A stretch of 64,000 bases of DNA, taken from the IMG/VR virus record IMGVR_UViG_3300027668_000016, positions 1,718-65,717 of that record, one strand, 5' to 3'. Each line of letters starts with the position of its first letter. Position 1 is the stretch's first letter. The notes beneath the pieces are model-generated. The model was not told where the DNA came from. It made no database searches and was given only the letters and a program-made list of their open reading frames with translations. Position numbers and translations under genes: made by a program. The DNA comes from a virus (taxonomy: Duplodnaviria > Caudoviricetes). Shown one piece after another: positions 43,391 through 58,248 of the stretch.

Positions 43391-44299
43391 TCATGCGTGC
43401 ACGTTTTTGTACTGAGATAGGGTTAATTCTTTCTTTTTAGCTTCTATCATAATATCTACATCTAATCCATAAGTATTTATATATTCTGAAATGTAATCTG
43501 AATGTGCTTGTGGTTTAATCTTATCATTCTCTTCGTGTAATGATTTAGATTCTGAATAATGAACTACAGGCTTAATATCACCCCAAGTACTAGCTGCAAG
43601 TTTAAGAGCTTCTTCTTCTGTTAATCCGCCTGTACAAAACTTATGATGATGATAATCAAATACAATTGGAATACCGATGCGTTCGTGAATGTACATTAAA
43701 TCTGTTACAGAATACATACTAGCCTTATCATCGTTCTCTACTGTCAATCTGTTTTGTGCAGATAGAGGGAGTCTATTAAAGTTCTTACAGAATCTATCCA
43801 TAGCAGTAATCTTATTACCATAGACACCATTACAATGGATATTAATCTTATTGTACGGAGTTTGTGATAATCCCATAAGGTCGAACATTTCAGCATGGTC
43901 TGTTAGCTCATTGATAGTATTTTGTACTACACTATCAGTTGGTGATGGTAATACGTTGAATGGGCCAGGATGAGTTGTAATACGTTGACCGTACTTAGTA
44001 GCAAGAGCACCAGCACCTTCTAATAGGATTTTGATACGATTGGCATGTGGCATATCTGATAACTTATATTCAGAATACCACGGAAATAAACCTGAAGTCA
44101 TTCTAAAGAAGTTAATACCATTTTGATGATTCCATTTGATAATCTCAATCAAATCTCTACAATTCTGAATGGCCAGCTCTGATGCGTATTCTACACCACG
44201 CTCTTTGAACGTTCTCTTAATCATACTACGATTGGTAGTAATTTTGGGTTTCTGTGAACCCAATGTTTCGTTGATACATGCGTATCCTAAATTCTGCAT
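43391..44299 (-). CDS. uvsE: UV damage endonuclease (UvsE/UVDE)
   Basis: LGYACIN, FFRMTS.LFP, HPGPFNVL, INIH.NG.YG, ENDDK, FDYHHH, HYSES, AHSDY, EAKKKE. Confidence 0.95.
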   Translation of the reverse strand: MQNLGYACINETLGSQKPKITTNRSMIKRTFKERGVEYASELAIQNCRDLIEIIKWNHQNGINFFRMTSGLFPWYSEYKLSDMPHANRIKILLEGAGALATKYGQRITTHPGPFNVLPSPTDSVVQNTINELTDHAEMFDLMGLSQTPYNKINIHCNGVYGNKITAMDRFCKNFNRLPLSAQNRLTVENDDKASMYSVTDLMYIHERIGIPIVFDYHHHKFCTGGLTEEEALKLAASTWGDIKPVVHYSESKSLHEENDKIKPQAHSDYISEYINTYGLDVDIMIEAKKKELTLSQYKNVHA

Positions 44300-48142: not shown

Positions 48143-49408
48143 TTAAAATGGGTTATCTAATGTATCATCATTTACATTGAAGAGGTCTTCTTTTTCGGTA
48201 GTACCAACAAACTTTTGAACAAACTGACGAATGTAAGTTCGTTCTGATTGTGCTCCACCAGCATCATCAAATAATGGGTAGATAGTAATCTCAGCTGCAT
48301 CTTCCAAAGTAAACCCATCGTAAAGTAGTGACCCAATCTCAACTGCTGTACGAGTCGAAAGTGAATTAGTAAGTTGTGGTGTTTCCTTCTTAACTTCTGA
48401 ACGAGTCATAGAAGTGATTTCAGCAACATTGGTAATTTGAGTTAAATCAACAGATGGGTACATCATACTAAGTAGACTTGTTTCCTCATCTTTAGTTAAA
48501 GTGTCCATTTCGATAATTTGAAATCTATCAACAATTGCTCTATCCAATTGTCGAGTGGCGGTGTATTCATTACCAATGTTAGCAGAAGCGATAAAGGAAA
48601 CACCTTCAGCAACTTTCACAACAGGTGAATCAGCTGCCTCATCTAAACGTAAATAACGTTGCCCAACATCCAAAACACTCATCAGAATGTTGTGAGCCTC
48701 AGGATGTGCTCTCGTAATCTCATCCAATACAATAACTGTATTTGGAGTTTGAATTGCCTGAACAAATGGTGATGGTGAAAACACAGTTCCTTTTTTAGTA
48801 TCGAATTGTGTATTACCGATTAACGTAGCCCGTGGGTCTTGCGTTGAACCTAAGTTGAAGATTTCCATTTGGTAACCCTCAATTGAATTAGCAGCTGCCT
48901 TAGCGGCCATTGTTTTACCACAACCAGCTGGTCCGGTCATCATAATGTTCTTACCTCTAATGATATTACGGATAAGATATTTCCACTTCAATTCGTTCAT
49001 AAACAACATTTGTGGTTTTAAATCCTTAGCTTCATTATGAATAAAGTTAAAGAACTCATCTTCTAATGGAGCGGTAACAACCTCTGCAGCTGTTGGTGTT
49101 GATTTCATTTGGTATTGTTCCAACCCACCATTTGGTTTGTTGAAATTCCCAACAGGCTTAGAACCGTTAAACTTCTCACCTGGCACTCTTCCAAACTCAA
49201 TTGAACCTTCGGTAAGGTTACCACTCACACGTACCTTAAAACAATACTTAGTGGGGTTGTTGGAGGCTGCAACTGCTCTCTTATATAGAGAACTACCAAC
49301 CTCATTTAGTTGAGGGACTAAAAATTCAACACCATTGGAATCTACCAATATTAACTCTTTGTTCTCATTTCGAACAACTTTACAAAATACGCTTCTTTGT
49401 GCTTTCAT
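48143..49408 (-). CDS. MoxR/CbbQ/CobS-type AAA+ ATPase
   Basis: Walker A GPAGCGKT, Walker B VLDEITR, sensor ASAN, LDRAIVDRF, STR. Confidence 0.92.
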   Translation of the reverse strand: MKAQRSVFCKVVRNENKELILVDSNGVEFLVPQLNEVGSSLYKRAVAASNNPTKYCFKVRVSGNLTEGSIEFGRVPGEKFNGSKPVGNFNKPNGGLEQYQMKSTPTAAEVVTAPLEDEFFNFIHNEAKDLKPQMLFMNELKWKYLIRNIIRGKNIMMTGPAGCGKTMAAKAAANSIEGYQMEIFNLGSTQDPRATLIGNTQFDTKKGTVFSPSPFVQAIQTPNTVIVLDEITRAHPEAHNILMSVLDVGQRYLRLDEAADSPVVKVAEGVSFIASANIGNEYTATRQLDRAIVDRFQIIEMDTLTKDEETSLLSMMYPSVDLTQITNVAEITSMTRSEVKKETPQLTNSLSTRTAVEIGSLLYDGFTLEDAAEITIYPLFDDAGGAQSERTYIRQFVQKFVGTTEKEDLFNVNDDTLDNPF

Positions 49409-49454
49409 ATATAATTATTTTTTAATTTTTAATTGGGTTAAACCTTAACCCCTT

Positions 49455-49520
49455 ATTACCTTACTAAGATACGACAATTATTTTGATTTACCAAACTTTC
49501 AATGTTAAGAAATTGTTAAT
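49455..49520 (-). promoter_or_regulatory. Early promoter cassette (AAA+ ATPase)
   Basis: TTAACAATTTCTTAACATTGAAAGTTTGG-N-CGTATCTTAG. Confidence 0.75.
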
Positions 49521-49526
49521 TCTTAT

Positions 49527-49676
49527 TTACTTTTTTACTTTTTTAAATCCTTTACCACATCCACAAGTCCAAGTGTTTATTCCTAAAGTTGGTTTTTCAC
49601 AATCGCAATACTCCGATTCTATTTGCTTCTTTGTCAAATAAGTTCCTGTCATTTTATTAAATTTTAGTTCTTTCAT
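49527..49676 (-). CDS. 49-aa Cys-rich (CxC...CxC) microprotein
   Basis: Hand translation MKELKFNKMTGTYLTKKQIESEYCDCEKPTLGINTWTCGCGKGFKKVKK, directly behind its own promoter cassette. Confidence 0.6.
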   Translation of the reverse strand: MKELKFNKMTGTYLTKKQIESEYCDCEKPTLGINTWTCGCGKGFKKVKK

Positions 49677-49695
49677 AACTCTTAATTTTTAACTT

Positions 49696-49799
49696 TTAAT
49701 AGGGATAACTAACCCCCCTTTCTTATTACATAATAAAGATACTATTAATAATTGGATTTACCAAGCGTTTTTGTACTTATTTTAAAAAGTTATTAACAA
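49696..49799 (-). promoter_or_regulatory. Early promoter cassette with leader hairpin
   Basis: TTGTTAATAACTTT...TTGG-N-GTATCTTTATTATGTAATAAG; 47 nt identical to 63703..63749. Confidence 0.7.
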
Positions 49800-49800
49800 T

Positions 49801-51963
49801 TTACTGAAATAATTTGTTTAACGTTTTAGTTAATGGTATTAAGTTGGTTACGTTGATGGATTGAGATGATTTACCATACATCTTCTTAAAGCTTTCCATT
49901 CCATAAGATGCATCATAACTACCACCTGATATAAAGTAAGATAGAATCTTAACTCCAGCCATCTCCATTTTTTTAACCTGCTTTGATGTATGTGCTATTG
50001 CACCTTCACCACCATATTCCATATCACCATTACTAAACCCTGGGTAACCATCGGAGAAGTTAATGAAGTAAGAATCAACACCTTTAGAAGTTTTGATGAT
50101 ATCATCTAAGATAGCCTCAAAACACAAACCTTCCGGAGTAGTCCCAGAAGGATTAAGATATTTAAAAGTTTGTTGAATCTTATTAATTTTATCTTTTCGT
50201 GAATCGTAAGCGATTAACATTAATGGTTGAACTGATTGAGTAGAATTACCTTGAATACTTCTGTATGAAATAACTACATCTAAATTAGAAGTCATCGAAG
50301 CAGCCTTAGCGATTGCAACAGCAGCTGTTTGTGAATTAGTCCATTTGCTCCCACCCATTGATGAACTAGCATCAATTGATATATGAACAAGCGCTGGATT
50401 ATGTTTATCAATTATCATCTGGTCAAATATGTTTGTGTTACCCATACCTAACTCATGTAGTAACCGACCTGATATCTTACCGTTCTTCATACGAGGTGTA
50501 GTTAGTGAACGTTCTTCAGAACGAAGTTTCAACTTACGACCCAACATAGTACCAATCTGAATTCCTTTAGTTATTGATGGTTGGTTACGTTCACATGCCC
50601 AAGGGTAAGTACTTAACATACCAATTGTATCTGATTCAGCTAATGCTTTTGAAAAGTTTCTAACTACAACTACTGCAGTTTTTCTTGATTGTCTCCAATA
50701 ATGGTCTGAATTATAATCATTACCAACTATCTTTTCTTCAATACCCGCTTTAGATAATGTTTCTAATTTTTGTTGTTCTGTTTTTGAAACTTTCTTTTTA
50801 GTAATCTCACCATTTTGAAATTGTTTTTGTTTCTTAATAGCGTTTTCTAACATTCGTTTCTGGCGGTCTGTAAATTTACCATCACCACTAACTGCTTCTT
50901 CAGTAGCGATATCCACATTCCCACCATCACCACCAGCTCCATTGGGATTGTAAGCGGTTGAACTACTTTTAACTGCATCACCATCAGCATCACCTTTCGT
51001 TTCATCCTTTCCATCGGAATCTTGCTTTGATTCAGTATCACCATTTGATTCTGAATTATCAGTACCATCAGTTTCAGTAGAGTCACCTCCACCCCCACTA
51101 CCGCTACCTTCATCAGTTTCTCCATCCTTACTCTTTTCACCTTCATCATTTTCATCACCCTCTTCAGTTTGGGTTTGGTTAGGTAATGAATCTTCAACCA
51201 TTGTGAAAATCTCACAAGCTAATTCCATTACCTGTGTAGTGTTTTCTAATCTTTTGATATTTTTAAGGTCAATCATATCCCATACTTTCTGTAACATTGG
51301 TAGAGCCTCTAAATCACGATTCTCATTAATGAAATTACAGATACGGAACATATAAGATTCCCAATCATCAGTTCGGAATTCCGAAGATGTTAAACCTTTA
51401 TCAATAATCCGAGCGTTGAAGTACTTATCGTACATTGCGTGGTAGTAACCTTTATAACCAGGAGAAGTAGAATAGATATAGTAATCAATTCGTCTATCTT
51501 CAATAATATTGATTAAATCTTTAACAATACCTTGAACATACTGGCGAACCCGATTGTAACCCATCCCATGCTTTTCTCCTAAAGATTCCAAATAATCATA
51601 AGTGATATGTTTAGGATAATCGTTAGCTCTTAGGTTATCTAACGTAGTGAAATCAGTTAGTTTGATATGAGAACCCTCATGCAATGCCAACCCAACGGTT
51701 GAATCAAAATCTTTACCATCCATCTTAGCTGATATAGTAACAGTTTTACCATCTGTATAAGAATCACCACGCTCATCAAATTTAACCTTAATGTTATCAT
51801 TAGTTACAATGTTAACGAAGTTACCGATAGCTCTCTTATAAGAGGCAAGAGCCATTAGGTTTGAGGATTTTTTATCTTCTTTATCTATTAAATTAGAATC
51901 ATCATCTCCGAACAAATCATTTCCAATCCAATAATCAGAATGTTGGTGTGTGTCTTTTTTCAT
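49801..51963 (-). CDS. vWA (CobT-like) partner of the AAA+ ATPase with N-terminal HExxH domain
   Basis: ALHEGSH, NIIEDRRID, acidic linker, MIDAS DASSSM, GTTP, NFSDGYP; likely start MKKDTH at 51963. Confidence 0.88.
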   Translation of the reverse strand: MKKDTHQHSDYWIGNDLFGDDDSNLIDKEDKKSSNLMALASYKRAIGNFVNIVTNDNIKVKFDERGDSYTDGKTVTISAKMDGKDFDSTVGLALHEGSHIKLTDFTTLDNLRANDYPKHITYDYLESLGEKHGMGYNRVRQYVQGIVKDLINIIEDRRIDYYIYSTSPGYKGYYHAMYDKYFNARIIDKGLTSSEFRTDDWESYMFRICNFINENRDLEALPMLQKVWDMIDLKNIKRLENTTQVMELACEIFTMVEDSLPNQTQTEEGDENDEGEKSKDGETDEGSGSGGGGDSTETDGTDNSESNGDTESKQDSDGKDETKGDADGDAVKSSSTAYNPNGAGGDGGNVDIATEEAVSGDGKFTDRQKRMLENAIKKQKQFQNGEITKKKVSKTEQQKLETLSKAGIEEKIVGNDYNSDHYWRQSRKTAVVVVRNFSKALAESDTIGMLSTYPWACERNQPSITKGIQIGTMLGRKLKLRSEERSLTTPRMKNGKISGRLLHELGMGNTNIFDQMIIDKHNPALVHISIDASSSMGGSKWTNSQTAAVAIAKAASMTSNLDVVISYRSIQGNSTQSVQPLMLIAYDSRKDKINKIQQTFKYLNPSGTTPEGLCFEAILDDIIKTSKGVDSYFINFSDGYPGFSNGDMEYGGEGAIAHTSKQVKKMEMAGVKILSYFISGGSYDASYGMESFKKMYGKSSQSINVTNLIPLTKTLNKLFQ

Positions 51964-52002
51964 ATTTTTTAATTTTAAATTTCTATTAGATTCAATCATC
52001 TC

Positions 52003-52086
52003 CCTTTCTTATTACATAATAAAGATAGGTATTTTATATTTAATAACCTAACATTTTATGTTAATTTTTGTTAAAGTTATTAACAA
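52003..52086 (-). promoter_or_regulatory. Early promoter cassette (vWA gene)
   Basis: TTGTTAATAACTTTAACAAAAATTAACAT..TTAGG-N-TATCTTTATTATGTAATAAGAAAG. Confidence 0.7.
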
Positions 52087-52284
52087 TCAAAATAGGGATT
52101 TGATTAGTTTCTTATAATCTATGGATAGTAACCCTATCATAGATAACATAATTGAGGTCAATGTAAAGGCCATCTCATTCAACACCCCCGAAAAGGTGAT
52201 GTAATTAGAGAGCGTCCCACTCATTGTGTTTGTAGCGATTACGAATCCAGCTACTGATAATAAAATTGCTTGATAATTTTTCAT
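52087..52284 (-). CDS. Small two-TM membrane protein
   Basis: Two hydrophobic segments; own promoter cassette. Confidence 0.55.
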   Translation of the reverse strand: MKNYQAILLSVAGFVIATNTMSGTLSNYITFSGVLNEMAFTLTSIMLSMIGLLSIDYKKLIKSLF

Positions 52285-52302
52285 ATTGTATATCTCTTAA
52301 TG

Positions 52303-52367
52303 ATTACAATACTAAAGTACGAAAAAAGATTGGGATTACCAAACTTCCAATGTTAACAAATTGTTAA
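52303..52367 (-). promoter_or_regulatory. Early promoter cassette
   Basis: TTAACAATTTGTTAACATTGGAAGTTTGGTAAT-N-CGTACTTTAG. Confidence 0.75.
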
Positions 52368-52370
52368 GTT

Positions 52371-53339
52371 TTAATTTGATAAAGGGGCTTTAATTGATGG
52401 ATGGGATTTATATCCTAGTAGCTCAATATCAAATTTACCATTTAAAATATCTACATTAGATAATTTAATAGTAGGTAAATCAAAATTATTTCTTTTTATT
52501 TGCTCTTCTGCTTGTTCAATGTGATTAAGATATAGATGGGTATCACCTAAGTTACCAATCAACCTACCTGCGACCATATTAACTTCTTTTGCTAATAACT
52601 CCAATAACAAACCATAGGATGCTATGTTGAAAGGTAATCCTAAGAATGTATCTACTGAACGTTGATTCCACATTAGGGATAGTGTTCGTGTTGGTACATT
52701 GTACTCATTCATCTCTTGTTCAATAAAGTCGTGATGCATATATGAACCTCCATTATTACCAAACCAAGTAAATCTCTCACTCAGACTTAACTCTCTTGTA
52801 TAAACTTGAAATCCATAATGGCAGGGTGGTAAAGTCATATTATTTAACTTTCCAACGTTCCAAGCGTTGACCATTAATCGTCTTGAATCCGGATTTGTTT
52901 TAAGGTCGTTGATTAGGTTAGCGATTTGGTCGAACCCATTCCAATCTCTCCATTGCTTTCCATATATAGGGCCTAATTCACCCCAACTTTTTGCTCTTAA
53001 CGAATCGGTTTTGATAGTATCAATGAATTTCATCATTGATTCGGGATTTTGATTGTTTTTACAATATGCCTTATAAGCATCACCATTCCAAATGTTGCAA
53101 CCATTATCAACTAAGTACTTGATGTTTGTATCTCCTTTCAGAAACCAAATCAATTCAGTCATCATTGTTTTAAATGCAACCTTTTTAGTTGTTAACAAAG
53201 GAAACCCATCTGACATATTATGTGTTATCTGTCTTCCGAAAACGGATAGTGTGCCTGTTCCGGTTCTATCCATCTTATCTACTCCAATTTCTAAAATGTC
53301 TTCGAGTAATGTGTTATATTGATAATCTAAGTTATTCAT
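52371..53339 (-). CDS. thyA: Thymidylate synthase
   Basis: DRTGTGT, FPLLTTKK, GPIYGKQWR, SRR, LPPCHY, QRSVD..LGLPFNIASY, GDTHLYLNH. Confidence 0.97.
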   Translation of the reverse strand: MNNLDYQYNTLLEDILEIGVDKMDRTGTGTLSVFGRQITHNMSDGFPLLTTKKVAFKTMMTELIWFLKGDTNIKYLVDNGCNIWNGDAYKAYCKNNQNPESMMKFIDTIKTDSLRAKSWGELGPIYGKQWRDWNGFDQIANLINDLKTNPDSRRLMVNAWNVGKLNNMTLPPCHYGFQVYTRELSLSERFTWFGNNGGSYMHHDFIEQEMNEYNVPTRTLSLMWNQRSVDTFLGLPFNIASYGLLLELLAKEVNMVAGRLIGNLGDTHLYLNHIEQAEEQIKRNNFDLPTIKLSNVDILNGKFDIELLGYKSHPSIKAPLSN

Positions 53340-54015: not shown

Positions 54016-54035
54016 AATCATTTACTAATTAAAAT

Positions 54036-54104
54036 TGGTGGGGGTGAGAAGGCTAGCTGTGTCTGGCAATGCCAATTTCTGCTTCAATCTCATCCGTACC
54101 CACC
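54036..54104 (-). ncRNA. Putative small hairpin RNA A
   Basis: GGTGGG..TGAGA pairs with TCTCA..CCCACC; 3' end CACCA; starts just after tRNA-Gly-like copy 1. Confidence 0.55.
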
Positions 54105-54108
54105 TTTG

Positions 54109-54180
54109 AGCGGGAGGTTGGAACTGCCCCAACTTCTTTGTACTGGAAGTACAACGAGTTTCTCTTAACTCTTCTCTCGC
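54109..54180 (-). tRNA. Atypical tRNA-Gly(UCC), copy 1
   Basis: GCGAGAG-AA-GAGT TAAGAGAA ACTC-G-TTGTA CTTCCAG TACAA-AGAA-GTTGG GGCAGTT CCAAC-CTCCCGC-T; full cloverleaf with non-canonical D and T loops. Confidence 0.85.
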
Positions 54181-54185
54181 ATTTG

Positions 54186-54257
54186 AGCGGAGGGTTGGAA
54201 TCGCACCAACACCTTCTATCTGGATGATAAATGTCTTACTACTAAGACTTCCCCCGC
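54186..54257 (-). tRNA. Atypical tRNA-Gly(UCC), copy 2
   Basis: GCGGGGG-AA-GTCT TAGTAGTA AGAC-A-TTTAT CATCCAG ATAGA-AGGT-GTTGG TGCGATT CCAAC-CCTCCGC-T; A33 and GUGC in place of GTTC. Confidence 0.82.
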
Positions 54258-54262
54258 AATAT

Positions 54263-54322
54263 AGAGAATGATAACCGGTAGCTTAAACTGAGCGGCCTTA
54301 TCTCAATCTTTAATCATTCTCC
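54263..54322 (-). ncRNA. Putative small hairpin RNA B
   Basis: 10-bp closing stem GGAGAATGAT/ATCATTCTCT; shares AGATTGA..CAG..AGCTA with RNA A; starts just after tRNA-Gly-like copy 3. Confidence 0.55.
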
Positions 54323-54326
54323 TTTG

Positions 54327-54398
54327 AGCGAAAGGTTGGAACTGCCCCAACTTCTCTATACTGGAAGTATAGCGGGTTTCTCTTAACCCCTCTCTCGC
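54327..54398 (-). tRNA. Atypical tRNA-Gly(UCC), copy 3
   Basis: GCGAGAG-AG-GGGT TAAGAGAA ACCC-G-CTATA CTTCCAG TATAG-AGAA-GTTGG GGCAGTT CCAAC-CTTTCGC-T. Confidence 0.85.
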
Positions 54399-54407
54399 AT
54401 TTATTAT

Positions 54408-54440
54408 GTAAATATACAAATAAAAATTGATATAACCTAA
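54408..54440 (-). promoter_or_regulatory. Bacteroidota-type promoter driving the tRNA-Gly-like operon
   Basis: TTAGG-N-TTTGTATATTTAC ending about 10 nt upstream of copy 3. Confidence 0.65.
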
Positions 54441-54719
54441 TTATATACCATAATATTTTATTGTACGTTTTTTAATAGCCGATATTATCGAATCATCTTT
54501 TTGTGCATTAATTGAGGTATCCCATAACTTCTTCATAAACATCATATGGTGTGGTTGGATATCAAATCCCATCTCACCATCAAATGTATTTAATGAGCCT
54601 GTAATAAGTGCGTTTACAATCTGAATATCTCCCGTATCTACTGTAGATTCTTTCGAATTTTCCATCAATTTCTTTAGATATACTATTTTATCGGTTATTT
54701 CTATACTTTCCCACATCAT
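54441..54719 (-). CDS. Hypothetical protein
   Basis: 92-aa ORF with TATATTTG a few nt upstream (nearly leaderless). Confidence 0.55.
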   Translation of the reverse strand: MMWESIEITDKIVYLKKLMENSKESTVDTGDIQIVNALITGSLNTFDGEMGFDIQPHHMMFMKKLWDTSINAQKDDSIISAIKKRTIKYYGI

Positions 54720-54784
54720 TTGAATACAAATATACGAAATTTAATTCATATATCCTAATTTATTTACTATTATTTTTACTATTG

Positions 54785-54856
54785 TAGCCCGTAAGAGAAT
54801 CGAACTCTTATTTTACGGATGAAAACCGTATATCCTAACCGTTAGATGAACGGGCC
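54785..54856 (-). tRNA. tRNA-Glu(UUC)
   Basis: GGCCCGT..ATCTAACGGTTAGGAT..TACGG TTTTCAT CCGTA..AAGAG TTCGATT CTCTT ACGGGCT A; canonical; CCA not encoded. Confidence 0.92.
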
Positions 54857-55458: not shown

Positions 55459-55782
55459 TTAATGTATTGATGTTATAGTTCCACTCTTACTAATACCATT
55501 TAGATGGCCTTCACATTTCATAGTTAGTTTATACACATAGGTAGTATCAAATGGTAATCCATCCCAACCTTCGACAGGGTCGTTTGTCCAAAACACCAAC
55601 ACACCATCCCTATCAAATATTTGTAAGTCGTATTGATTTACACTAAGTGTATCATCAAACACAGGTTTCCAAATATCATTATGCCCATCCCCATTTGGTG
55701 TGAATGCATTTGGGATGTAAACATCTTGTGCGAATGATGTTGTTCCAACAAACATCGCTACTACTATTAATAACTTCTTCAT
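55459..55782 (-). CDS. Signal peptide + stand-alone T9SS type-B (gliding-motility-associated/CHU_C) C-terminal sorting domain
   Basis: MKKLLIVVAMFVGTTSFA|Q followed by YIPNAFTPNGDGHND.W.P, LQIFDRDG.LVF, GWDG, TYVY, KSG.IT. Confidence 0.85.
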   Translation of the reverse strand: MKKLLIVVAMFVGTTSFAQDVYIPNAFTPNGDGHNDIWKPVFDDTLSVNQYDLQIFDRDGVLVFWTNDPVEGWDGLPFDTTYVYKLTMKCEGHLNGISKSGTITSIH

Positions 55783-57459: not shown

Positions 57460-58248
57460 TTATTTAATTTTTATGTTTAATTTAATCCACCCACGATTGG
57501 GAATATAATCTTTATGGTCACTATAGTTAGATACTTCAATTGATTCTACAATTTCATCAACACTCATCCCTGTTAGGTGTTTAATATTTAAACAAGTATC
57601 CGAATCTTCTTTAGGGTTAACCAACCCATTAACTCTATTATCTTTTATATTATAACCAGCTTGTCTGAATTGTGATTGATTAACTGTGAATATATTCCAT
57701 TCATCGGTCATATGGTCTATGAATACATCTACTGCTAATTTGATTGGTTGGTATTTAGCTATTAACTTATCTACGCTGGATTGGTTGATGAGGTATGCAT
57801 GTGCTCCCCAACCACCATGTCCATACAATACTCTGGAAATCAGTTTGGTTTCAGCCATACCGGTTATATATTTTTCATGCTTACCTAAGTATATAACATC
57901 CCAATCTAATTTATCTATATCTAATTGTAACTTTTCTAATTCGTAGGATGGTGTATAAACTGCATCATCTTCCAATATTAATCCAATACTCTCTCCACTT
58001 TCTTTAAATTCGGTCCATGCCTTAATGTGTGATAACGAACATCCAATGATATTTTTATTTAGAATACCAGATGGGTCGTAGAATGATTCGTTAAGAACAC
58101 CAGCCTTTATAAGTTTGGATACATTTATATCGGAGCCAGGTACGGCATCAATAAATGTGTAATCTAACCAATCCATAGTAGATACTATATTATTACGTCT
58201 ATCAGTTCTATTTAAGAGTGATATAATATAAGTTTTCCAATTTTTCAT
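57460..58248 (-). CDS. Glycosyltransferase family 25
   Basis: YIISL..RTDRR, FIDAV.G, IGCSLSH..W, LILEDDA, WDVIYLG, AHAYLIN, VD. Confidence 0.9.
   Translation of the reverse strand: MKNWKTYIISLLNRTDRRNNIVSTMDWLDYTFIDAVPGSDINVSKLIKAGVLNESFYDPSGILNKNIIGCSLSHIKAWTEFKESGESIGLILEDDAVYTPSYELEKLQLDIDKLDWDVIYLGKHEKYITGMAETKLISRVLYGHGGWGAHAYLINQSSVDKLIAKYQPIKLAVDVFIDHMTDEWNIFTVNQSQFRQAGYNIKDNRVNGLVNPKEDSDTCLNIKHLTGMSVDEIVESIEVSNYSDHKDYIPNRGWIKLNIKIK

Follow-up and report, generated by a model that had tools for sequence, protein, structure and literature searches.

The 64,000-nucleotide stretch of DNA analysed here (the window), from a marine virus of the Caudoviricetes (IMG/VR record IMGVR_UViG_3300027668_000016), carries on its minus strand an array of three odd tRNA-Gly genes that belong to a family recurring in many viral contigs. 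This family probably consists of private, dedicated, non-decoding glycyl donors for DNA hypermodification of the Mom type, a reading that draws on the structure of the elements, on their pattern of conservation, and on their co-occurrence with, or adjacency to, Mom genes. The three elements and the one ordinary tRNA gene of the window are listed below, with lengths in nucleotides (nt) and, for the odd copies, scores from R1, a covariance model built from these three copies.

54327-54398, minus strand: odd tRNA-Gly copy A, 72 nt, 96.3 bits, anticodon loop CUUCCAG
54186-54257, minus strand: odd tRNA-Gly copy B, 72 nt, 90.5 bits, anticodon loop CAUCCAG with A33
54109-54180, minus strand: odd tRNA-Gly copy C, 72 nt, 96.4 bits, anticodon loop CUUCCAG
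54784-54856, minus strand: canonical tRNA-Glu(UUC), called by ARAGORN and scoring 59 bits with Rfam, the sole ordinary tRNA in the window

Structure and conservation of the odd tRNA-Gly family

An earlier reading of the letters (the original prediction) had described three 72-nt cloverleaves with a UCC anticodon and the GlyRS identity set, and both folds and sequence bear this out for every copy. The minimum free energy folds are cloverleaves (z of -2.3 for copy A, folded one base off at 54326-54397, -3.5 for copy B, and -2.9 for copy C); together with the covariation described below, they give a 7-bp acceptor stem and D, anticodon, and T arms. All three copies have the anticodon UCC, A37, and the complete set of G1-C72, C2-G71, G3-C70, U73, C35, and C36, which we take to be the bacterial tRNA-Gly identity set recognized by GlyRS. 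The family does not hold to U8, G18, T54-Psi55 (TTC), and U33, the features of a canonical elongator. Position 8 is A, not U, in each window copy, and the D-loops (UAAGAGAA in copies A and C, UAGUAGUA in copy B) have A18 in place of G18 and retain G19, such that the predicted absence of the D-loop GG is correct for G18 and overstated for G19. The T-loops are GGCAGUU in copies A and C and UGCGAUU in copy B, and position 33 is A in copy B; these features and A8 are as first described, as are the canonical nature of the nearby tRNA-Glu and the compensatory pair changes that distinguish copies A and C in the D stem and the anticodon stem. Copies A and C share C32, U33, U34, C35, C36, and A37, and copy C has a single A4.C69 mismatch. 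CCA is unencoded in the window copies, where CAA follows U73, and encoded in a copy from a metagenome-assembled genome (MAG) and in some Mom-adjacent copies discussed below. As anticipated, tRNA finders score the elements poorly: neither ARAGORN nor Rfam at its gathering score called any of the three, and the Rfam tRNA model (RF00005) in sensitive mode matched copy B alone, at 39 bits.

The T-stem of the window copies (G49-C65, U50-A64, and U51-A63) contains the two A-U pairs that had been pointed out. They are not diagnostic, because the stem of the family (G49-C65, U/G50-A/C64, U51-A63) is the same as that of a canonical phage tRNA-Gly(UCC) at locus L153, and an argument from this stem to EF-Tu binding was dropped for that reason.

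Searches with R1 gave 33 matches of at least 80.6 bits in the window and 16 viral loci, among the matches listed, with ordinary tRNAs scoring at most 49.2 bits. A first pattern based on the T arm was too loose, most loci among the matches listed having no family member. With a stricter pattern of 20 bases, 56 stretches were retrieved from viral contigs, and on these R1 gave 72 matches at E values up to 1e-6 in 40 loci. The pooled alignment holds 64 matches representing 57 distinct sequences; its stem cells are paired in 99.8% of cases, 15 of the 21 pairs show double changes, none of 500 shuffles reaches the observed covariation score, and slid registers come nowhere near it. The odd tRNA family is real and its structure is under selection, its recurrence and covariation across numerous viral contigs going beyond chance. 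The original prediction would have been refuted by a lack of homologues with the same loop changes in related phages, and 57 distinct homologues with these changes were found.

G1, G3, C70, G71, C72, U73, C35, C36, and A37 are invariant in all 57 sequences, with C2 in 56; A8, U14, G19, A21, and C56 are likewise invariant, and A18 and G55 are each present in 56. Positions 54 and 58 change jointly (G/G in 54 sequences, U/A in 3). Position 33 varies freely (A in 31, U in 23, G in 2, C in 1), and position 34 is U in 44 and A in 13. As a control, 121 distinct tRNAs called by ARAGORN in the same 37 loci were examined: 120 have U33, and U8 and the TTCRA T-loop are each found in 118. Because 118-120 of the 121 conform, these phages evidently hold their other tRNAs to the usual decoding rules. 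The constraints on the odd family fit glycine charging and an L-shaped fold, not decoding on the ribosome. Most relatives have two copies spaced 5 nt apart with nothing between them. At L102 (5445-5516, plus strand), the window's closest relative, a tRNA with A8, a GG D-loop, a TTCAAAT T-loop, and an 8-nt anticodon loop, CAUUCCAG, is by its sequence an intermediate form.

Ordinary phage tRNA clusters supplement codons, and the odd genes resemble them in lying in tandem on the same strand within an early tRNA cluster; they differ in that only the ordinary genes keep U8, U33, and TTCRA. It is unlikely that the elements are translating tRNA-Gly(UCC) with an odd but working elbow that supplement GGA or GGN codons, perhaps offsetting a drain of glycyl-tRNA by Mom. 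Such a role would suit the placement of the array in a cluster whose other members are mostly U34 species, the regular series from C32 to A37 in copies A and C, the lack of another tRNA-Gly in the window, the retained G19-C56 platform, and the 36% share of GGA and GGG among 951 Gly codons in 28 open reading frames (ORFs) of the window. However, only 23 of 57 family members have U33, which 120 of the 121 control tRNAs keep; 13 of 57 have A34, and C34 appears in the related Mom-adjacent set; and canonical tRNA-Gly coexists with the odd family in several loci (UCC in L153, L172, and L175; GCC in L021, L057, and L164), ARAGORN calling 12 distinct tRNA-Gly in family loci. Moreover, the favored Gly codon in the same ORFs is GGT (60%; GGA 25%), and the other phage tRNAs correspond to the most used codon for their amino acid, which is mild evidence against simple codon supplementation.

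Association with Mom genes

Mom genes were identified with the Pfam family PF25680, which is defined by Mu Mom, at a score cut-off of 27.1 bits. Two large relatives, G001 (173 kb, 95% complete) and G002 (126 kb), have three Mom genes each, and in G001 these lie around the family-B DNA polymerase gene (PolB) in the order 2OG-Fe oxygenase, Mom, Mom, PolB, Mom, a 231-amino-acid protein, a DruA-like gene, and clamp loader. Another 39 records that bear the family include 13 with Mom, and among the 11 of them that are at least 90% complete, 10 have it; the more distant relatives G063 and G065 have both Mom and a family tRNA. When all family-bearing records at least 84% complete are considered, 13 of 14 have two to three Mom genes, scoring 117-166 bits. 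The exception, G032, has neither Mom nor PolB; its tRNA copies have the same scores as those of G029 (270 kb), a record with both genes, and its two anchor points map to the part of G029 that holds neither. We regard G032 as a fragment because it has no PolB and maps onto part of G029 only. Since the array and Mom are separated by 57-107 kb in G001, G002, and G029, small fragments cannot show both, and Mom-less fragments (11 of 13 and 26 of 39 records) were rejected as counter-evidence on this ground.

Mom stands beside PolB in 51 of the best 80 of 533 stretches found as PolB relatives. One genome of this kind, G057 (180.8 kb, 94% complete), has a PolB 87% identical to that of G001 and neither Mom nor a member of the tRNA family, nor the DruA-like gene. 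Synteny with G001 is otherwise retained: tRNA-Ala and tRNA-Glu stay at the array site, where four ORFs (L264 6101-7788, plus strand), two of them DUF2589 and one encoding a zinc-ribbon-like 67-amino-acid protein, replace the odd pair, and the places of Mom next to PolB are either vacant or taken by a methyltransferase-like gene. The loss of the odd tRNAs jointly with Mom, with both flanking tRNAs remaining, argues against a translating role.

In other lineages the odd tRNAs directly adjoin Mom genes, which likewise speaks against translation. The 20-base family pattern occurs in two stretches among 185,579 species genomes. The first is a true member (70.7 bits with R1, 80.7 bits with R2) on a 136.6-kb MAG contig binned as Alphaproteobacteria; it encodes CCA, has the loop UGACCAA, and starts within the 3' end of a Mom gene (150.8 bits), and the contig has a ParB-like gene 3' of the tRNA and no PolB of the clade type. 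The second, in Paenibacillus (L268), falls outside the family and lacks Mom. Four of eight close viral relatives of the MAG Mom type have an R2 match starting 6-46 nt past the Mom match, and in a wider set of that type 9 of 24 loci have a family match 0-0.9 kb downstream on the same strand; in the same run none of 56 loci with the PolB-clade Mom type had a family match nearby. Where ARAGORN calls the Mom-adjacent RNAs, they are tRNA-Gly(tcc) and tRNA-Gly(acc), and the only other tRNAs within 3 kb of them are one His and one Tyr. A reading of the Mom-adjacent tRNAs as att (integration) sites was rejected, since they are non-canonical and are embedded in operons, where a ribosome-binding site and, 19 nt downstream, the next gene follow.

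The association holds in the reciprocal direction. A tRNA-only pattern, blind to Mom, gave 39 loci with 40 R2 matches, and Mom lies within the locus for 30 of the 40, mostly within ~300 nt on either side. In 6 of the remaining 10 records Pfam locates Mom elsewhere; of the last four, three are short fragments or break off at the tRNA, and the fourth is G078, discussed below. Among the tRNAs of this reciprocal set, any of the four bases can stand at position 33 and U, A, or C at position 34, with C35, C36, and A37 unchanged throughout. At L357 (7077-8201, plus strand), a single Mom gene is flanked on each side by an identical tRNA-Gly look-alike (tRNA-Mom-tRNA).

Mu Mom moves glycine from Gly-tRNAGly to N6 of adenine in double-stranded DNA, accepts all three Escherichia coli tRNA-Gly isoacceptors, and refuses glycine carried on a tRNA-Ala body, as described by Silva et al., 2026 (PMC13219725). 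The relatives of the window phage carry bona fide Mom-family genes by score, and the three paralogs of G001 keep H58, Y59, R111, S124, D149, and Y159 of Mu Mom invariant, that is, six of seven active-site residues (numbering taken as the GenBank translation plus 10, which is inferred and fits all six spacings). The systems differ in that Mu depends on host tRNA-Gly (PMC13219725), whereas here two to three Mom paralogs around PolB are accompanied by private tRNAs. The main text of that paper, its supplements lying outside the search, makes no mention of phage-encoded or neighboring tRNA genes, and a literature search on Mom or momylation together with phage-encoded or non-canonical tRNAs returned no report of a phage tRNA partner. 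Several features are new in the window's clade: the tRNAs are unlinked from Mom and lie in a tRNA cluster in two to three tandem copies, PolB is surrounded by two to three Mom paralogs, the presence of a DruA-like GNAT follows that of Mom, and a highly conserved hairpin lies between copies.

Proposed pathway and its weighing

These observations suggest a pathway, several parts of which we infer: that the RNAs are processed and charged, that they evade EF-Tu and the ribosome, that Mom uses them, and that the window's own phage has a Mom gene. The array would be transcribed with the early tRNA region, excised by host RNase P and 3' processing, and completed by a host enzyme that adds CCA. Host GlyRS would then glycylate the products through the intact identity set (G1-C72, C2-G71, G3-C70, U73, C35, and C36). 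The re-wired elbow (A8-U14, A18 with G55, and G54 with G58) and the loose positions 33 and 34 may keep the charged tRNA off the ribosome, mark it for another enzyme, or both. Finally, phage GNATs of the Mom family would put its glycine on adenine of the phage DNA, yielding a Mom-type carbamoylmethyl-adenine, and the modified genome would be shielded from host nucleases; the co-inherited DruA-like GNAT may take part in this step. The original prediction had offered either a supply of Gly-tRNA to an aminoacyl-tRNA-dependent transferase or a decoy for host defense. Comparative evidence favors the former and points to Mom (PF25680) as the transferase, with charging, EF-Tu avoidance, and use by Mom being its predicted components.

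Two kinds of transferase that had been proposed as partners were looked for and not found. Among other TRANSFERASES, neither a FemAB match over the cut-off nor an L/F-transferase turned up in G000 (the record of the window), G001, G023, G029, or G078, and a 12.2-bit FemAB match in a 1057-amino-acid ORF of G000 was dismissed as below the cut-off. The window ORFs scanned against Pfam, which comprise 54 of the 81 listed minus-strand ORFs (2 more were compared with PHROGs only, and the remaining large and the very small ORFs were left out), likewise include no FemAB or L/F-transferase family.

The closest precedent is the non-proteogenic tRNAGly NP1-NP3 of Staphylococcus, which are used by FmhB, FemA, and FemB and are stated to be known only in Staphylococcus aureus and Staphylococcus epidermidis (PMC7826273). 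Both systems have extra tRNA-Gly(UCC) genes that can be charged (a prediction here), both have their distinguishing features in the D and T arms, both lose the TTC of the T-loop (TGC or TGT in Staphylococcus; TGCGATT in copy B, with GGCAGTT as a variant in copies A and C), and the staphylococcal tRNAs provide glycine to a GNAT-fold transferase off the ribosome (PMC7826273), a role proposed here for the phage tRNAs. They differ in that the genes described here are encoded by a phage and not by a bacterium, that the likely consumer is the DNA-modifying Mom instead of a cell-wall Fem transferase (no FemAB was found), and that the elbow is re-wired in another way (A8-U14, A18, G54, G55, and G58, with position 33 variable). 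The low-affinity EF-Tu T-stem of the staphylococcal tRNAs (A49-U65, U50-A64, and A51-U63) is also absent here (PMC7826273).

Several points weigh against glycyl donation to Mom. First, as Mu Mom uses all three ordinary isoacceptors, a private tRNA is no requirement (PMC13219725), and the seventh active-site residue, R151, is not conserved (K, P, and P in the three G001 paralogs). Second, G000 has no PF25680 match over its length, which stops 9.6 kb upstream of the array, and the window's subclade is represented by no near-complete genome, its nearest relatives, G030 and G003, being fragments; a 179-amino-acid ORF near the end of G000 matched only G030 among 21 records and gave no tie to a fragment bearing PolB or Mom. 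Third, the near-complete genomes form about eight near-duplicate groups and so represent few independent co-occurrence events, the joint absence of Mom and the family was seen in one whole genome only (G057), and 15 of the 24 loci of the second Mom type have no tRNA nearby. Fourth, G078, a complete 89-kb genome, has a family member and no Pfam-detectable Mom. Lastly, the array lies within a cluster of mostly U34 decoding tRNAs in a window with no canonical tRNA-Gly, and in this context copies A and C (U33, U34, and C32) could decode.

G078 and the clade share the DruA-like protein, which raises an explanation that we judge quite improbable: that the tRNAs donate glycine mainly to this protein, or to it and Mom in sequence. 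In the clade the DruA-like gene lies two genes past PolB (L138 11002-12192, minus strand, in G001), and in 55 PolB loci with full flanks (L176-L255) it is fully concordant with Mom, both being present in 41 and neither in 14. In the Mom-less G078, a family tRNA that encodes CCA lies directly between PolB and a DruA-like domain (PF14236), all three within one uninterrupted 1099-amino-acid frame (L395 3810-7109, plus strand). The fold predicted for the DruA-like protein from a 15-sequence alignment is a GNAT (mean predicted local distance difference test score, pLDDT, 75.4), and the top match of this model in the PDB by Foldseek is Mu Mom (8bv8, E 3.9e-4). On the other hand, Mom and the tRNA occur without DruA in the MAG contig and in most loci of the second Mom type, and VIA-align, which places Mom at Z 9.7 over 180 residues, ties it with many ordinary GNATs (Z 9-10; FemA 8.9). 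A profile comparison of Mom with DruA-like proteins found nothing, as did a PDB sequence search, and the Atlas returned DruA only; we know of no activity for DruA. The DruA-like protein is a lead, a putative second GNAT-type enzyme by its modeled fold. Combining the odd tRNAs, the Mom paralogs, and the DruA-like GNAT into a three-part DNA-hypermodification kit is a rather unlikely extension, in which a phage-made orthogonal carrier would work off the ribosome, the different enzymes and paralogs would serve different DNA contexts, and the DruA family, including Druantia DruA, would by extension be aminoacyl-tRNA-dependent DNA transferases.

Phage tRNAs with changes in the anticodon loop have been reported to escape host nucleases. 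This precedent, together with the presence of two to three copies per array, could suggest that the elements are decoys or replacements against defenses that target tRNA-Gly, such as toxins that acetylate Gly-tRNAGly or pyrophosphorylate CCA, or anticodon nucleases. Toxins that target tRNA-Gly do exist (bioRxiv 10.1101/2024.07.05.602228), and GNAT toxins have been discussed in connection with tRNA-Gly (PMC13219725). We nevertheless consider decoys very improbable: they leave co-inheritance with and adjacency to Mom unexplained, they do not need strict acceptor and C35/C36 identity combined with a re-wired elbow, and no defense or anti-defense partner was seen. A transferase partner is preferred because the family co-occurs with or adjoins Mom in several lineages.

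If donation to Mom is correct, phages encode an orthogonal, non-translating aminoacyl-tRNA whose sole purpose is to serve DNA chemistry as a co-substrate. Non-proteogenic tRNAs, so far known from Staphylococcus only, would thereby gain a second example, the first viral one and the first devoted to DNA, and the failure of standard tRNA finders to call these genes would be accounted for. The family would then be a sequence marker of glycine-type DNA hypermodification in uncultured phages, with a bearing on restriction evasion and on sequencing, and would offer natural tRNA/enzyme pairs in which charging is uncoupled from decoding. It also predicts that Mom recognizes the re-wired elbow of the tRNA body.

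Flanks, expression, and neighboring genes

The window comprises nearly all of its record (65.7 kb, estimated 37% complete), has a G+C content of ~32%, and carries every large ORF on the minus strand. The features flanking the array and the genes near it are as follows.

54258-54325, minus strand: hairpin between copies A and B, 68 nt, fold z -2.1, kept in relatives
54030-54108, minus strand: hairpin 3' of copy C, 79 nt, -25.7 kcal/mol, z -3.2, followed by AAUUUU
54399-54440, minus strand: short A+T-rich leader with TAtaTTTA at 54409-54416, read from the sequence
54441-54719, minus strand: 92-amino-acid ORF, conserved upstream neighbor of the array
55459-55782, minus strand: 107-amino-acid ORF with a CHU_C type IX secretion signal domain (E 2.7e-12) and little else
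43391-44299, 48143-53339, and 57460-58248 jointly, minus strand: genes near the array, among them a UvdE UV-endonuclease and a family-25 glycosyltransferase
48143-49408, minus strand: CobS-like AAA_5 ATPase, near the array
49801-51999, minus strand: CobT-like protein of 732 amino acids, near the array
52371-53339, minus strand: thymidylate synthase, near the array

In L142, L151, L155, and L163, the spacer that separates the two odd tRNAs matches the A-B hairpin at 93-95% identity over 62 nt; the CobT-like protein of these genomes is only ~50% identical to that of the window. Because conservation is so high, this suggests either a functional small RNA or a recent transfer; the hairpin has no Rfam match in gathering or sensitive mode. 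The hairpin 3' of copy C may be a terminator or another small RNA, though it went uncalled in a terminator scan, and none of the other fetched loci has a match to it. The upstream ORF of related loci extends into the first tRNA and ends inside it. A homolog of the 92-amino-acid ORF lies directly upstream of the array in 10 of the 17 loci compared, the window included, and this ORF has no PHROG match.

A single promoter for the array, as asserted in the original prediction, was not borne out: a sigma-70 scan of the window found no site on the minus strand, where the array lies, and TAtaTTTA, which was only read from the sequence, is a possible Bacteroidota-type promoter element. Among Logan contigs, those of four marine metatranscriptome runs align at 90-97% identity to 54046-54406 and to the upstream ORF; these contigs come from relatives, may contain DNA, and cannot show ends or CCA, and they give a weak hint that the array is transcribed. 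In two runs of one study a contig ends or starts at 54397-54406, where copy A has its 5' end; in another study a contig runs across this point.

The hairpins and the overlapping upstream ORF could also be read as signs that the tRNA-like elements are structural or processing elements, that is, RNase P/Z punctuation that frees hairpin RNAs or the upstream mRNA, the amino acid being irrelevant. The conserved hairpin between copies, the ORF ending inside the first tRNA, and the breaks in the RNA contigs in those two runs all agree with this, but most relatives, with two copies 5 nt apart, have no cargo between them, punctuation has no need for invariant C35, C36, A37, and U73, and the link to Mom is left unexplained. 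We therefore regard punctuation as extremely improbable.

A blastn search with the 1.2-kb array region against cultured phage genomes gave no match. The CHU_C type IX secretion domain is compatible with a Bacteroidota host and does not prove one. In G000, G003, G004, and G005, records of the window's subclade, contigs break within ~10 kb upstream of the array, which may reflect a genome terminus or a stretch that resists assembly.

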